A stretch of DNA of 64,000 nt from an uncultured Mycoplasmatota bacterium. GTDB taxonomy: Bacteria; Bacillota_I; Bacilli_A; RF39; UBA660. Under the pieces are notes generated by a model. The model ran no database searches. It saw only the letters and a program-made list of their open reading frames with translations, and was not told the origin of the DNA. This document shows, piece after piece, positions 861 to 6,291 of the stretch (position 1 is the stretch's first letter; every line of letters starts with the position of its first letter). The translations under genes and the position numbers were made by a program. The stretch covers positions 37,991 through 101,990 of the forward strand of contig URCH01000003.1 in the NCBI GenBank assembly GCA_900546275.1, written 5' to 3'.

Positions 861-2135
861 GTGATTAAAGTATTTGATTTTGAAAAAATGCCGGTTGTTG
901 AAATCGTTAATGATATATTAGTAGATGCTTCAAGAAGAGGTGCGAGTGATATTCACTTTGACCCACTTTCTGAATATATGAAAATAAGAATAAGAATCGA
1001 TGGAGCATTAATGGATTATGCAACTATACCAAATAGTATAAAGAAAAATCTTATAACTCGTATAAAAATAATAAGTGGAATGAACATAACAGAATCACGT
1101 CTACCACAAGATGGTGCAATAAAAACCACACTTCAAGACTTGAATTTAGACCTTCGTGTTTCTTCAATACCAACAAATGAAGGTGAAAAAATAGTTATAC
1201 GTATTTTAGACTATTCAAAAAGTTTAGCAGGACTTGAATCACTTGGTTTTAGTGAAGAAAATCTAAAAAAAGTTTTAAAAATGATTGAAGTTCCTAACGG
1301 TATAATATTGGTAACAGGTGCGACTGGTACTGGTAAATCTACTACTGTCTATTCAATAATACAAAAATTAAATCGTGAAGATACAAATATAATAACTGTA
1401 GAAGATCCAATCGAAATGGATATAGAAGGCGTTAACCAAATACAAACAAATAGTGAAATTGGTTTAACATTTGCAACTGCACTTCGTTCAATATTACGTC
1501 AAGACCCAAATATAATAATGGTTGGAGAAATTCGTGATACTGAAACTGCTAAAATAGCTGTTAGAGCTTCTATTACAGGACATTTAGTTTTATCAACACT
1601 ACATACTAACAACTCACTAAATACAATCGAACGTTTACTAGATATGGAAGTTGAAAGATACCTTCTTGCTAGTTCATTAACAGGAATTATATCACAGAAA
1701 TTGGCGCGTAAGCTTTGTAAGGAATGTGCTGAAAAAAGACCTACCAATGAATATGAGAAAAAATTATTAAAAAAAGTATTAGGTCGTGATATAGATTATG
1801 TATATACAACTGTTGGATGTGAAAAATGTGGAAATGGATATCATGGAAGAGTTGCTATACATGAAGTATTAATGATTAATCAAGAAATTAAAGATGCATT
1901 AAGTGCAAATATTCCAAGAGAAAAATTAAGAGAATTAGTTTACAAATCAGATGTTACTACCCTACTTCAAGATGGCCTTGAAAAAGTTGTAGCTGGTGAA
2001 ACAACAATTGAAGAAATATTAAAATTAATTGAACTTGATAATGATGAAAGATATGAAAGTACATCAGAATATGATTTAAAAACAGCAATAGATTTTACTA
2101 ATATATCTCATAAAGATAAAGAAAATATTAATTAA
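861..2135 (+). CDS. pilB: Type IV pilus assembly ATPase, PilB/GspE family
   Basis: Walker A VTGATGTGKSTT. The Asp box, His box and a C-terminal tetracysteine motif (CKEC...CEKCGNGY) typical of GspE/PilB are present. Length is 424 aa. Confidence 0.9.
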   Translation: MIKVFDFEKMPVVEIVNDILVDASRRGASDIHFDPLSEYMKIRIRIDGALMDYATIPNSIKKNLITRIKIISGMNITESRLPQDGAIKTTLQDLNLDLRVSSIPTNEGEKIVIRILDYSKSLAGLESLGFSEENLKKVLKMIEVPNGIILVTGATGTGKSTTVYSIIQKLNREDTNIITVEDPIEMDIEGVNQIQTNSEIGLTFATALRSILRQDPNIIMVGEIRDTETAKIAVRASITGHLVLSTLHTNNSLNTIERLLDMEVERYLLASSLTGIISQKLARKLCKECAEKRPTNEYEKKLLKKVLGRDIDYVYTTVGCEKCGNGYHGRVAIHEVLMINQEIKDALSANIPREKLRELVYKSDVTTLLQDGLEKVVAGETTIEEILKLIELDNDERYESTSEYDLKTAIDFTNISHKDKENIN

Positions 2136-2156: not shown

Positions 2157-2930
2157 TTATTTTATTATTGTAAAAAAATCTAGTATTTGATTTATATCAA
2201 CTTTTGAAAACAATATAAGTATTGCACCCACTCCTAAAAATGGTCCAAATGGTAATATATGTTCTTTTTTTCTTAAACAAATTAGAAGTGCAACAGGAAG
2301 TCCTACTATTGCGCCAACAAAAATGGATATAAGAGCAAGAGGCCATCCTAAAACTAAACCATGAATTGCTAAAAGTTTTATATCTCCTCCACCCATCGAT
2401 TCTTTTTTAAATAAAAAATCTCCAAGCTTTTTAAGTAAGAACATAATAAATGAAGCAATAATTGCACTCATAATTCTATATAATAATATCTTATAACCAT
2501 ATATAAGGAATATTTCAATAATTAAAACTATTGCAAAAAATATTAAAACTTCATCTGAAATAATCATGAAATTATAATCACTAATAGTTATTATTAAAAT
2601 TAATGATATAAATGTTAAGGCAATTAGTAATTCGTAACTAAACCCAAATATTAAGAAAGCTAACATAAATAAAAGTCCAGACACAGTTTCAAATATTGGA
2701 TAAAACCATGAAATTTTTTGTTTACATTTACTACATTTTCCTCCTAAAAATAAAAATGAAAATATAGGAACAAGTTCCCATGGCATTAATTTATGATTGC
2801 AATTAGTGCAATGAGAACTTGGATATAATAATGATTCTCCCTTTGGTAACCTATAACCTACTACATTATAAAATGAACCTAACACAGTTCCAAAAAGGAA
2901 AAAGCAAAAAGCATAATAAATCGTCATCAT
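2157..2930 (-). CDS. pilD: Prepilin peptidase (A24 family, PilD/ComC)
   Basis: Polytopic membrane protein with an N-terminal Cys-rich segment (CTNC...CSKC) and a GGGDIKLL aspartyl-protease motif characteristic of A24 prepilin peptidases. Confidence 0.85.
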   Translation of the reverse strand: MMTIYYAFCFFLFGTVLGSFYNVVGYRLPKGESLLYPSSHCTNCNHKLMPWELVPIFSFLFLGGKCSKCKQKISWFYPIFETVSGLLFMLAFLIFGFSYELLIALTFISLILIITISDYNFMIISDEVLIFFAIVLIIEIFLIYGYKILLYRIMSAIIASFIMFLLKKLGDFLFKKESMGGGDIKLLAIHGLVLGWPLALISIFVGAIVGLPVALLICLRKKEHILPFGPFLGVGAILILFSKVDINQILDFFTIIK

Positions 2931-2939
2931 GTCAACTCC

Positions 2940-5081
2940 TTAAATTTGTTGTATTGTTTCATATAAACTAAACATTGGAATTACTATTGATAAAACAATT
3001 ACACCAACTATTGCAGTTAAGAAAACAAGTAATATTGGTTCCATTAATGTTTTAATTTTAGTAACCATATCTTTATGTAAGTCTTGATAGTATACAGAGA
3101 CTTTCTGCATCATTTCTGCTAATTGACCAGTACTTTCACCAGTCACCAACATCTCATATGCTGGAATTGGGAAAGCCCAATGATCCTTGAATGCCAAAGA
3201 TATTTTTTCACCCCTAGCAAGATTTGCAACCGTATCAACTATTATCATCTTATATATTTCATTATTAGTTATTTTATTTAATATATCCATACTATCAGTT
3301 ATATAAACATTATGAAATAATAAGGATGAAAAAGTTTTTGTAAGCATTGTAACTTCATTATATATTATTACATTTCCAATAACAGGTAAATGCATTAAGA
3401 ACCATTGCATTATAGTTCTAAATGGAGTTACTTTTTTATATAAAACAATTATTAATATAATAAATAAAACAATACCAAGTACAATAAATAATATATTTGC
3501 TTTAATAAAATCACTGACTGCTATTACAAATCTAGTAAACGCAGGGATCTTAGATGCATCCATTGATTCATACATTTTAACAAATTGTGGTACAACAAAT
3601 ATTAATATAAAAGTAATTACTACTATTGAAATAAAAAATACAATAGATGGATACATCATAGCATTAACCATTTGTTTTTTAGTTTGGTTTGCTTCGGTAT
3701 AATATTCAGCCATATCATCAAGTGACTCAGTTAATTCACCAGTTAATTCTGAAGCTTTAACCATATTTACCAATAATTTTGGAAATGTATTTCCTTGTTT
3801 TGCCATGGCGCTACTAAAACTTTCACCAGTTGATAAATCATATATCATTGTTCTAAATATATTTTTATATTTTTTTTGTTTATATTGTCTAGAAAGTATT
3901 TTTAATGCTTCAACTAAAGTAATACCTGCTTTTAAATAAGTAGATAATTGAGTTAAAAAGAATACTAAGTCTTTTGTTTTAAATTTTGGATTACCAGCTT
4001 CTCTATATAAATTCTGAATAAGCCAGTTAGTTTTTATACTATATACTTCATAACCTTCACTAAGTAAAAATGAGTGAACTTCTACTTTTGAATATGCAGC
4101 AAATCGTTCTTTAACTATTTTCCCTTCAGGATTTTTAGCTTCATATACATATACTATTTTATTTGCACTTTTTTCAGCGTCTTTTCCATCAAATTCAAGC
4201 ATTAGAGCTTGTCTATTTATATCTCTTTTGTTTCTTGCATTCTTAACAAATGATATATTATAAAATGCATTTTTAATCTTTTTACCAATAAGAGAAGGTA
4301 TTGTAGGAAGCATTTTAAAGAAAGCAGCAAGTTTTTGACTAGAAGTCATTTGATTTCTTTGTTTCTTTAGTTCTTCTTTTGCTTGTCTAACTTTTTCTTT
4401 TTCTAATTTTCTTTCTTCTTGTTCTTCAAGTTTTTTTCTAAGTTTTTCTTCTCTTAATTTTTCTTTTTCTAATTCTTTTGCAGTTTGTTTCTCTAACTTT
4501 TCTTTTTTTAATTTTTCTTTTTCTTCTTGTTTTTTTATTCTTTGTAAATACTTATCATCATTTTGTTTTAATAATTTTCTTTGTTCACGTAATTCTTCTT
4601 TTCTTAATCTTTTTTCTTCTCTAGCTTTTTCTCTTTTAGCAATTAGTTCATTCTTTTTTTGAATTCTTTCTTGTTGTTTTAAAAGTTTTTCTGCTTGTAA
4701 TTTTTCTTTTTTCTCTTTTCTTAATAATTTTCTTTGTTCATATAATTCTTCTTTTTTTAATCTTTTTTCTTCTCTTATTTTTTCTTTTTTAGCAATTAAT
4801 TCATTTTTTCTTTGAATTCTTTCTTGTTTTCTTAAAGTTTTTTCGGCATTATCGACATTATCAACATTATGTTTTTTATTTTTTAATAACATTTTATATA
4901 AATAAATAAAAGGTGTTGCAATTAAATATAAAACATATAAAATTCCTTTTAATGAATACATAATAAATTTAAATATATTATAAAATACAAAAAGTAAACC
5001 TAGAAATGGATACTTTATAAATTTTAATATAGTTGACAAAATATTATTACTTTTATTCGCCATATATTCATGCACTCCCAT
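2940..5081 (-). CDS. pilC: Type IV pilus platform protein PilC/GspF with a ~300-aa N-terminal extension (TM helix plus K/E-rich coiled coil)
   Basis: The C-terminal ~400 aa carry two GspF-type domains, including the IVYVYEAKNPEGKIVKERF start-like motif and a polytopic membrane region. The N-terminus has one hydrophobic helix followed by a lysine/glutamate-rich repeat. The likely true start is the second Met (MANKS...), which is preceded by a GGGAG ribosome-binding site. Confidence 0.8.
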   Translation of the reverse strand: MGVHEYMANKSNNILSTILKFIKYPFLGLLFVFYNIFKFIMYSLKGILYVLYLIATPFIYLYKMLLKNKKHNVDNVDNAEKTLRKQERIQRKNELIAKKEKIREEKRLKKEELYEQRKLLRKEKKEKLQAEKLLKQQERIQKKNELIAKREKAREEKRLRKEELREQRKLLKQNDDKYLQRIKKQEEKEKLKKEKLEKQTAKELEKEKLREEKLRKKLEEQEERKLEKEKVRQAKEELKKQRNQMTSSQKLAAFFKMLPTIPSLIGKKIKNAFYNISFVKNARNKRDINRQALMLEFDGKDAEKSANKIVYVYEAKNPEGKIVKERFAAYSKVEVHSFLLSEGYEVYSIKTNWLIQNLYREAGNPKFKTKDLVFFLTQLSTYLKAGITLVEALKILSRQYKQKKYKNIFRTMIYDLSTGESFSSAMAKQGNTFPKLLVNMVKASELTGELTESLDDMAEYYTEANQTKKQMVNAMMYPSIVFFISIVVITFILIFVVPQFVKMYESMDASKIPAFTRFVIAVSDFIKANILFIVLGIVLFIILIIVLYKKVTPFRTIMQWFLMHLPVIGNVIIYNEVTMLTKTFSSLLFHNVYITDSMDILNKITNNEIYKMIIVDTVANLARGEKISLAFKDHWAFPIPAYEMLVTGESTGQLAEMMQKVSVYYQDLHKDMVTKIKTLMEPILLVFLTAIVGVIVLSIVIPMFSLYETIQQI
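4524..4840. repeat. ~150-bp tandem duplication inside pilC, encoding two copies of QERIQ(R/K)KNELIAK(K/R)EK(I/A)REEKRL(K/R)KEEL(Y/R)EQRKLL
   Basis: The DNA copies at ~4570-4690 and ~4721-4840 are about 90% identical with a ~151-153 bp period. The protein repeats are clear in the supplied translation. Confidence 0.7.
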
Positions 5082-5192
5082 TTCTACTCTAACATTATTA
5101 TTATAGCATAAAAATATATTTTGTAAAATATTTTTGTAAATAACTTAAAAAAAATAATAAATATTTAATTTATTAGTATTTATTACTTATAA

Positions 5193-5599
5193 TTAATCTT
5201 TTTTTCTTTTTTTATTCATTATATAACTAAATAGTTTTCTAAGTTCTGTTTTTGTTTGTGCATCCATTTTTATAAAGTTTAAACGTATTTGATATCCACT
5301 ATCAAACGATAATAATATAGCACCTGATGTTGCTTTAAAAAGAACTGCACCGGTTGAAATTGAATCATAAGGTATTATATGTATTTTTTGCTTTTACTTA
5401 TTGGATTACAATCAAAAAGTACCATTCTGTCATTAGTAAAAACTCCCCTATCACTTAATGTTTTATATGCCTTATATATTATTTCTCCTTCATCAACATA
5501 ATCCGTTACATATTTAGGTAAACTAGTTTTATCTATTTCTTTACTAAAATTAAAGTATTTTGTTAATTCTTTATATTTAACATATGCCATTTTCTTCAC
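5193..5599 (-). pseudogene. Bacterial PH-domain (bPH, YdbS/YdbT-like) protein interrupted by a frameshift
   Basis: The 74-aa ORF 5375-5599 ends ...CNPISKSKKYI*. The +2 frame continues in-register as IPYDSISTGAVLFKATSGAILLSFDSGYQIRLNFIKMDAQTKTELRKLFSYIMNKKRKKD*, the conserved core of bPH domains. The shift lies next to an A6 run (gcaaaaaatac). Confidence 0.5.
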
Positions 5600-5626: not shown

Positions 5627-5650
5627 GCATTTATACAATAGTATAAATGC
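5627..5650 (-). terminator. Rho-independent terminator downstream of the lepB remnant
   Basis: Perfect 10-bp inverted repeat GCATTTATAC-aata-GTATAAATGC. On the minus strand it is followed by TTTTTTAT. Confidence 0.5.
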
Positions 5651-5761
5651 AACTGACTACCATAGTACAACATATTGTACTTTAGGTTCTAGAGTTTTGC
5701 GTTATTACCTTTCAATAACTTTGCCTGTGATAATTTTATAAGATTTTAATTTAAATGTCAA

Positions 5762-6291
5762 TCATTTAACAATTTTTAATTTATTTAGTGGCCATAATCT
5801 TATCCATGCTTTACCAATTATATCTTCTTTTTTTATAAGTCCAAAATTTCTTCCATCCATAGAATTGTTTCTATTGTCTCCTAACACTAGATAATATCCT
5901 TCTGGAATAACATCATATCCAAGTTCTTTTATATCAAAATCATCTGTTGTTGTATCTATAAATTCTTCTTTTACAGGATTCCCATTTACATACATTACAT
6001 TATTATTATATGCAATATGTTCATTTGGAAGTCCTACAATTCTCTTAATTAATAATTTTTCGTCATACTTAAGAACACTACTTCATTTCTTTTAATTTCT
6101 CTAAATTTATATACTATTTTATTAACTATTAAAACATCCCCCTCTTTTAAAGTAGGGCTCATAGAGGGTCCAATAACTTGTTGAAATGATACAATGTATA
6201 TAACTATTATGAGTATAATTAAAATCATTATAATATATTTCAATGAATCTTTTAAAAATTCTTTAATATCACGAAAATCCATGACGATCAC
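5762..6291 (-). pseudogene. lepB: Signal peptidase I (LepB/SipS family), disrupted by a frameshift and three consecutive in-frame TAA codons
   Basis: The N-terminal ORF carries the TM helix and box B (GPSMSPTL). The C-terminal ORF carries box E (GDNRNNSMDGRNFG). Box D (LLIKRIVGLPNEHIA) is encoded between them in the C-terminal frame but is followed immediately by taa-taa-taa. The N-terminal part is in a different frame and ends ...KNY*. Confidence 0.65.

Follow-up and report, generated by a model that had tools for sequence, protein, structure and literature searches.

In current models of type IV filament machines, the platform protein rotates as a trimer that is driven by an ATPase, and both its N-terminus and its first cytoplasmic domain, Cyt1, lie in the cytoplasm (PMC10191384). 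The canonical members of the PilC/GspF family are about 400 residues long, with an N-terminus that leads straight into Cyt1. The stretch of 64,000 nucleotides (nt) analyzed here (the window), part of contig URCH01000003.1 from an uncultured Mycoplasmatota bacterium, encodes a platform protein, PilC, that departs from this plan: its product has 707 amino acids (aa), the first 304 of which precede the canonical body. We propose, with a probability of roughly 0.55 for the overall picture, that in this lineage an N-terminal arm has been added to a PilC that is ordinary in all other respects. The arm consists of three modules (an amphipathic N-terminal module, or N-module; a basic charged tract; and a conserved linker) and may act as a membrane-anchored tether. 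Residue numbering counts from the ATG at 5063, which is Met7 of the longest open reading frame (ORF).

The body of the protein was readily recognized. The T2SSF domain (PF00482/IPR018076) was detected twice by Pfam (E = 1.6e-47), with the first domain at residues 375–498, and positions 1–400 of the 401 in the NCBIfam GspF model align to residues 305–703, leaving the 304 N-terminal residues over. A Foldseek search against the PDB matched the core to 2whn, 3c1q, 5nbg, and 4hhx, at target-normalized TM-scores of 0.79–0.90 and an rmsd of 1.3–2.3 Å, and also to 3jc8; the structures matched at these scores are the solved Cyt1 domains, a six-helix-bundle fold, of PilC, EpsF, OutF, and TcpE. In the same search, the core alone was matched and no solved structure resembled the arm, and full-text literature searches found no published description of such an N-terminal extension of PilC.

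With PilC, GspF (PulF, EpsF), and HofC, the window protein shares the two T2SSF domains, the Cyt1 fold, a neighboring pilD gene, and a nearby GspE-type ATPase. It differs from them in its additional residues and in scores that fall short of the NCBIfam equivalog cut-offs (264 vs. 424 bits for GspF, 243 vs. 401 for HofC, and 235 vs. 700 for PilC). ComGB, the platform protein of the monoderm competence pilus, is comparable in its monoderm host, its minimal set of neighbors, and an ATPase, ComGA, that lacks the N1 domain as does the ATPase of the window. The ComGB model (NF041012), however, gives 140.7 bits against a cut-off of 240 and spans residues 367–700 only, unlike the PilC and GspF models, which begin near residue 300, and the window's pilins, at 289 and 363 aa, are large and not ComGC-like. 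Domain and fold assign the product to the PilC/GspF family, within which it matches no named subfamily as an equivalog and represents a divergent clade. A first-pass annotation of the window, which had described a PilC platform protein with about 300 extra N-terminal residues, was correct on this point.

Secondary structure and confidence values were taken from a single-chain AlphaFold2 (AF2) model, built with 104 homologs (mean pLDDT 80.9). The model places five helices before the core, at residues 7–64, 75–165, 175–236, 241–268, and 271–284, with low-confidence breaks in the arm at 65–74 and at 166–174 (KQNDDKY).

A 304-residue extension translated as part of PilC

On the minus strand, 713 codons are open from 5081 to 2940, and translation from the in-frame ATG at 5081 would yield a product of 713 aa. 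Translation most likely begins downstream of this codon, at the third ATG (5063, MANKSNN...), judging by a GGAG 11 nt upstream and by the closest homologs, which begin at the equivalent methionine.

Several features argue that the extension is translated with PilC as one protein. The first-pass annotation had pointed to a start at the internal methionine of MTSSQK, with its own ribosome-binding site, as the finding that would separate the two. No Shine-Dalgarno (SD) sequence was found upstream of this methionine (Met245, at 4349), nor of Met257 or Met294, while neighboring genes carry AAGGAG; in addition, Met245 is not conserved and is replaced by Leu in the closest relatives. The 120 best homologs in a collection of 5.8 billion proteins are mostly 583–900 aa long, and the few shorter ones are fragments. 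We further compared 80 species-representative genomes containing a relative of pilC, in 78 of which the locus is not cut at a contig edge. The frame runs uninterrupted through the extension in 77 of these 78 loci, and extensions reach up to 480 aa (median 226 aa). In the sole exception, L037, a stretch of masked N breaks the frame, which also explains the apparent split of this locus; a separate upstream gene was not seen in relatives with short extensions. Based on the base composition of the window (24% GC), random frames would be expected to meet a stop about every 11 codons. Finally, the pattern K-Y-P-F-x-G...F..Y...G...Y near the N-terminus is invariant in an 8-sequence alignment of close homologs, down to 60% identity.

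Variation of the arm and the 153-bp duplication

Across this clade of uncultured gut Bacilli, the arm is, as judged from the aligned loci, conserved in its architecture and not in its length. The first-pass annotation had suggested that pilC lengths be compared among relatives. Besides the spread in total extension length given above, the comparison showed that the charged tract is missing in some species and reaches 320 aa in others. Of the 78 species genomes, 61 encode a tract of 30 aa or more (31–320 aa, median 71), which is net positive in all 61, while in some relatives it is absent or nearly absent. Its sequence is unconserved, except near the C-terminal end among the closest relatives. 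In-frame tandem repeats other than the one described below, with periods of 30–66 nt, occur in 7 of the 78 species.

In the window, Tandem Repeats Finder (TRF) reported a repeat at 4568–4842 with a period of 153, 1.8 copies, 89% matches, and a score of 459. The two units share cores of 126 nt (42 aa), which are alike in 111 of 126 nt (88%) and in 34 of 42 residues, while the units are not alike over the remaining 27 nt of their 153-nt periods. Between the cores, 11 codons differ, 3 of them synonymously; of the 8 nonsynonymous differences, 4 are exchanges of K and R. When the codons of the tract were shuffled (n = 500), the best 126-nt self-identity was 63% ± 2% and at most 71%, and the real value of 88% therefore indicates a true duplication rather than low-complexity noise. 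Together, the duplicated units make up the AF2 helix at residues 75–165, which was roughly doubled by the duplication.

The history of the duplication could be followed within the species, using 7 distinct full-length sequences from a 90% cluster (about 69 contigs from the JGI, ENA, and Logan human-gut assemblies). The cluster also included unrelated 479-aa proteins of glycoside hydrolase family 1, probably through an indexing artifact, and a 595-aa member, which is not a one-copy allele but a gene call cut at a contig end inside the repeat. A metagenome scan for further strains yielded one additional same-species locus only, L081. Exactly two copies of the 153-bp unit are present in all 7 distinct variants, among which no difference in copy number between strains was found. 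Between the window and L081, copy 1 is 94% identical to copy 1 and copy 2 is 99% identical to copy 2, whereas copy 1 and copy 2 within a strain are 87–88% identical; the core of the pilC gene differs by 1.75% between the two strains. Because the orthologous copies are closer than the paralogous ones, the duplication is older than the strain split, by these identities much older, and has become fixed, with no sign of concerted evolution or of ongoing change in copy number. The nearest other species (68% identity) does not carry it.

These results change part of the earlier description, in which a unit of about 51 aa was said to be duplicated in tandem (about 90% DNA identity, period of about 151–153 bp), recently and with ongoing expansion or contraction as a source of length polymorphism. 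The period and the high identity were recovered, the latter in the cores and not in the remaining 27 nt of each period. The duplication is not recent, as it predates the strain split, and ongoing expansion or contraction is not supported, given the constant copy number. Length polymorphism does exist, both in the tract between species and in a 9-bp in-frame microrepeat (NVD) beside the duplication, but not in the 153-bp unit itself. The only length difference among the 7 same-species variants, 710 vs. 713 aa, sits in this microrepeat (4843–4870), where strains carry RNVDNAEK, RNVDNVGNAEK, or RNVANAEK.

The variation of the tract could also be read in another way. The tract may be a neutral product of replication slippage that is tolerated in a 24% GC genome and has no function of its own, in which case only the N-module and the linker before Cyt1 would matter. 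This explanation, which we consider unlikely but the most serious of the alternatives, would account for the range from no tract to 320 aa, for the unconserved sequence, and for the relatives with almost no tract. It also agrees with cryptic short repeats within the tract (a period of about 6 residues, and TRF rows of 54 nt and 12 nt) and with a composition that equals what A-rich DNA encodes. A tract of at least 30 aa has been kept in most species, however, and is net basic every time. Moreover, strains of the species do not differ in copy number, the closest relatives share a conserved C-terminal half of the tract, and AF2 predicts the helix with confidence, all of which argue against a sequence that is merely tolerated.

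Anatomy and topology of the arm

The N-module was modeled by AF2 as one unbroken helix (pLDDT 74–80). Over residues 8–60 (53 aa), its hydrophobicity follows a phase-coherent 3.6-residue periodicity (P = 7.0, compared to 0.76 in shuffles, with 0 of 500 as high). All Lys, Tyr, and Gly residues fall within one arc of about 140 degrees (260–40 degrees), and the remainder of the helix consists of Phe, Leu, and Ile. The module contains three 18-residue repeats, KFIKYPFLGLLFVFYNIF, KFIMYSLKGILYVLYLIA, and TPFIYLYKMLLKNKKHNV (residues 14–31, 32–49, and 50–67), which give an offset-18 self-score of 47, compared to 10.5 ± 7.8 in shuffles (0 of 2000 as high). Eighteen residues amount to five helical turns, and the best internal offsets in relatives likewise lie near whole helical turns: 18 in 20 species, 22 in 12 species, and 11 in 9 species. 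The residues K, Y, P, F, G, F, Y, G, and Y of the module are invariant among the close homologs aligned, and a K/R-Y-x-phi-x-G motif occurs 1–4 times in 63 of the 78 extensions, but in the cores of only 4 of 78. The mean Eisenberg hydrophobicity of the module is 0.5–0.7 with a moment of 0.3–0.47, compared to 0.7–1.0 and about 0.1 for the transmembrane (TM) helices of the core. A HMMER search with the module alone against 1.84 billion representatives recovered a fragment from the same species and a repetitive protein that is unrelated, but nothing else, and so gave no evidence for the module in other proteins; a 67-residue hydrophobic query has low sensitivity in such a search.

The first-pass annotation had assigned "one TM helix" to this region. 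A 53-residue amphipathic helix with three repeats, a lower hydrophobicity, and a higher moment than the core TM helices does not support this, and an in-plane or shallowly inserted amphipathic anchor most likely fits the module better than a single TM span. Amphipathic repeats that bind membranes are known from the 11/22-mers of apolipoproteins and perilipins, and targeting helices from MinD and FtsA. The N-module resembles these in its whole-turn repeat lengths (11, 18, and 22), in the placement of Lys at the polar–apolar boundary, and in its broad hydrophobic face. It is, however, much more hydrophobic and aromatic, has no homology to them, and would bind in the plane of the membrane only by inference from these properties.

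Alternatively, the N-module could be a two-pass TM hairpin, with both the N-terminus and the C-terminus inside and the loop SLKG outside, while the rest of the arm is as proposed here. A pair of stretches that lack charged residues (14 and 17 residues, separated by K-G), the Lys residues that flank both ends in line with the positive-inside rule, and the best self-offset of 22 residues in 12 relatives are all consistent with a hairpin. The two stretches are short for TM spans, however, as are the 18- and 11-residue repeats of relatives for separate ones. The amphipathic phase is also maintained over the supposed turn, which AF2 passes through in a single helix. We therefore rate the hairpin as rather improbable, below the neutral origin of the tract, and retain the in-plane anchor as the preferred reading of the N-module.

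The charged tract consists of 27% K, 23% E, 14% L, 12% R, and 10% Q, with K, E, and R together making up 62% and a net charge of +25. It is covered by the AF2 helices at 75–165 and 175–236, with pLDDT values up to 91 and the break at KQNDDKY. Where the first-pass annotation had described a heptad-like K/E/R/Q tract forming a coiled-coil arm, the composition was borne out and the heptads were not. The power at a period of 3.5 residues was 0.156, compared to a shuffle mean of 0.157 (p = 0.39), while a tropomyosin sequence used as a positive control reached 1.82, 12-fold higher. Hydrophobic residues are mostly spaced 5–6 apart, with spacings of 3 and 4 occurring once each. Because the heptad-period power equals the shuffle mean and the spacings are mostly 5–6, the tract is by sequence not a canonical coiled coil. 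Its dominant period of about 6.2 residues reflects cryptic KEKLEK-like units.

A canonical coiled-coil arm that oligomerizes into a dimer or trimer, contacts PilB, and is preceded by one TM helix is consequently very unlikely. AF2 does predict long helices, hydrophobic residues such as Leu and Ile account for about 20% of the tract, and a dimeric or trimeric state has been suggested for platform proteins (PMC10191384, PMC10790770). Yet next to the lacking heptad signal and the near absence of 3/4 spacings, parallel chains with a net charge of +25 would repel each other, and the amphipathic, periodic N-module is not a plain TM segment.

Opposite charges at i->i+4 are not enriched in the tract either (0.19 observed vs. 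about 0.18 expected from composition), and for this reason it does not qualify as a textbook ER/K helix. Spacers formed by an ER/K single alpha-helix (SAH) occur, for example, in myosins. The tract is similar to these in its content of K, E, and R, in its long isolated predicted helix, and in plausibly being a rigid spacer, but differs in its Leu content, its net positive charge, and its charge pairing. As modeled, it may well form a rod-like helix.

The linker that follows contains an amphipathic helix, FFKxIPTIPxLI, and then, just before Cyt1, the sequence N-x-R-D-I-N-R-x-A-L-M, which is invariant in the 8-sequence alignment. The linker is amphipathic and too polar to span the membrane, and no hydrophobic span is found between the tract and Cyt1. 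As the tract is connected to the cytoplasmic Cyt1 without a membrane span, and as its charge of +25 follows the positive-inside rule, sequence connectivity places the whole tract in the cytoplasm. Of the two locations named in the first pass, "cytoplasmic or periplasmic," the latter was rejected because of the polarity of the linker helix.

Possible role and genomic context

Taken together, these modules suggest a way in which the arm could work. The N-module (about 55 residues) would lie in or dip into the cytoplasmic leaflet, holding the N-terminus at the membrane. The basic K/E/R/Q/L helix of about 170 residues would serve as a spacer or single-helix-like rod of weakly constrained length, and the linker would feed into and position Cyt1, to which the assembly ATPase docks. 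The spacer would evolve through in-frame slippage and duplication of A-rich DNA; one 153-bp duplication roughly doubled the first tract helix (about +51 aa, or about +7.5 nm if helical) and was then fixed in the species. The arm would thereby be a membrane-anchored tether that positions or stabilizes the platform–ATPase complex in a minimal monoderm pilus machine. This function of the arm itself is more tentative than the overall picture, and we regard it as possible rather than probable. Of the roles raised in the first pass, a spacer or a contact to PilB, that of a spacer is plausible for a cytoplasmic, basic, helical tract.

Several observations weigh against this picture. Length is so weakly constrained that an insertion which is simply tolerated would fit equally well as a functional tether, and the net basic charge may only reflect an A-rich codon bias. 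As i->i+4 charge pairs are not enriched, the rigidity of the rod is uncertain. The mean hydrophobicity of the N-module borders both the TM and the amphipathic classes, and a TM hairpin or a share in an oligomeric bundle are other forms that the module could take. Lastly, in the 32 loci in which both were seen, the lengths of the ATPase ORFs (394–557 aa) do not track the length of the extension, as they might if the arm compensated for a missing ATPase N1 domain.

A functional analogy, but no more, can be drawn to GspL and PilM-PilN, in which a membrane-anchored element has a cytoplasmic part at the ATPase–platform interface (PMC10191384). The window arm has no sequence or fold similarity to these proteins and no actin-like domain, and is encoded in cis on the platform protein. 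In a bolder version of the tether, the arm would be a built-in substitute for a PilM/N/O or GspL-type membrane subcomplex, in which the three in-plane anchors of a platform trimer, with its three rigid basic helices, would cage or tether an N1-less ATPase beneath the platform, and changes in helix length through repeats would tune the cage. We consider this version improbable, although less so than a coiled coil. The weakest alternative, in which the tract would belong to another gene or go untranslated, with PilC beginning at Met245 or later, can practically be dismissed: a Met is present at 4349 and gene callers gave truncated products of 408 and 512 aa on short contigs, but these products derive from contig ends, and the absence of internal SD sequences, the unconserved Met245, the roughly 300 open codons at 24% GC, here and in 77 of 78 species, and the invariant N-module residues all oppose it.

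The features of the locus are listed in Table 1. The pilC gene adjoins pilD in 80 of 80 related loci. The ATPase of the window aligns to positions 106–484 of the GspE model and 177–560 of the PilB model, and thus has no N1 domain; it ends in a short polar C-terminal tail. In relatives for which upstream genes were listed (L001–L080; 6401..8487 in the window), the gene order is conserved as rpoD, trmK, a yqfQ-like gene on the opposite strand, pilC, and pilD. In the window species, lepB, a riboswitch, and a bPH gene are inserted between yqfQ and pilC. The riboswitch belongs to the cyclic di-GMP (c-di-GMP)-I class (RF01051, 61.9 bits) and immediately precedes the bPH gene, some 560 nt upstream of pilC. 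It is itself preceded by a promoter-like site and followed by a terminator-like hairpin. Through this riboswitch, c-di-GMP may control part of the pilus locus.

In L081, L087, and L088, which are other strains of this species, the riboswitch is followed by a variable surface-protein-like gene of 441–588 aa, and then by bPH, pilC, and pilD. The window strain does not carry the surface-protein-like gene, and homology to L081 resumes exactly at the T-run after the riboswitch terminator, at about 5626. Its bPH_1 gene lacks one A near 5389 (A6, compared to A7 in L081, where the 132-aa product is intact). The resulting frameshift is either a sequencing error or marks a pseudogene, with homopolymer-type errors being one possible cause. 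The lepB gene, encoding signal peptidase I, is likewise frameshifted relative to other strains, being split into two ORFs (77 and 80 aa) in the window and intact (173 aa) elsewhere. Two genes for unusually large prepilins, both with the class III signal MKKGFTLVELL, are located far from pilBCD, beside mutL/murC and other housekeeping genes.

Table 1. Features of the pilC locus and further elements of the window, with coordinates and the basis of each assignment.
Feature	Coordinates	Strand	Basis or remark
pilC, 707 aa, start at Met7	2940..5063	-	ORF list, GGAG, homolog starts, Pfam T2SSF x2
N-module, aa 8-64, Tyr/Lys-lined amphipathic hydrophobic helix, clade-conserved K-Y-x-F-x-G motif	4872..5042	-	AF2, periodicity, self-score, alignment
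9-bp in-frame microrepeat (NVD NVD N..)	4843..4870	-	TRF period 9, 3.1 copies
Basic K/E/R/Q/L low-complexity helical tract, aa 73-240	4344..4847	-	composition, spacing, AF2
Duplication copy 1, aa 73-114	4847..4722	-	126-nt core, TRF and hand alignment
Unique 27-nt linker between duplication cores	4695-4721
Duplication copy 2, aa 124-165	4694..4569	-	126-nt core, TRF and hand alignment
Conserved linker, aa 241-304	4152..4343	-	invariant columns, consensus, AF2 helices 241-268 and 271-284, moment up to 0.49
Canonical PilC/GspF body, aa 305-707 (Cyt1, TM, Cyt2, TM)	2943..4151	-	GspF model, Foldseek
pilD, prepilin peptidase	2157..2930	-	10 nt downstream of pilC; Pfam A24_N_bact, Peptidase_A24
PilB/GspE-type ATPase, 424 aa, convergent	861..2135	+	Pfam T2SSE
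Promoter-like site TTTACA-16-(TG)TATAAT, just upstream of pilC	5100..5127	-	consensus scan, 11/12 matches; pattern match only
c-di-GMP-I riboswitch	5645..5735	-	RF01051
Promoter-like site upstream of riboswitch	5733..5761
Terminator-like hairpin downstream of riboswitch	5627..5650
bPH_1 gene, frameshifted	5195..5599	-
lepB, two parts	5762..5995 and 6049..6291	-
Prepilin gene, 363 aa	39241..40332	-	class III signal
Prepilin gene, 289 aa	34746..35615	-	class III signal

Among the core parts of type IV filament machines, none is less well understood than the platform protein. A clade of reduced-genome gut Bacilli with an arm on PilC provides a natural experiment on what a minimal machine needs at its cytoplasmic face. 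The arm is also a clean example of protein lengthening through in-frame duplication in AT-rich genomes. For genome annotation, it follows that gene callers and annotators should not trim PilC proteins of 600–900 aa to an internal Met. If the arm does substitute for a membrane subcomplex that cages the ATPase, no type IV filament machine before it would have had a tether or stator encoded in cis on its platform protein.

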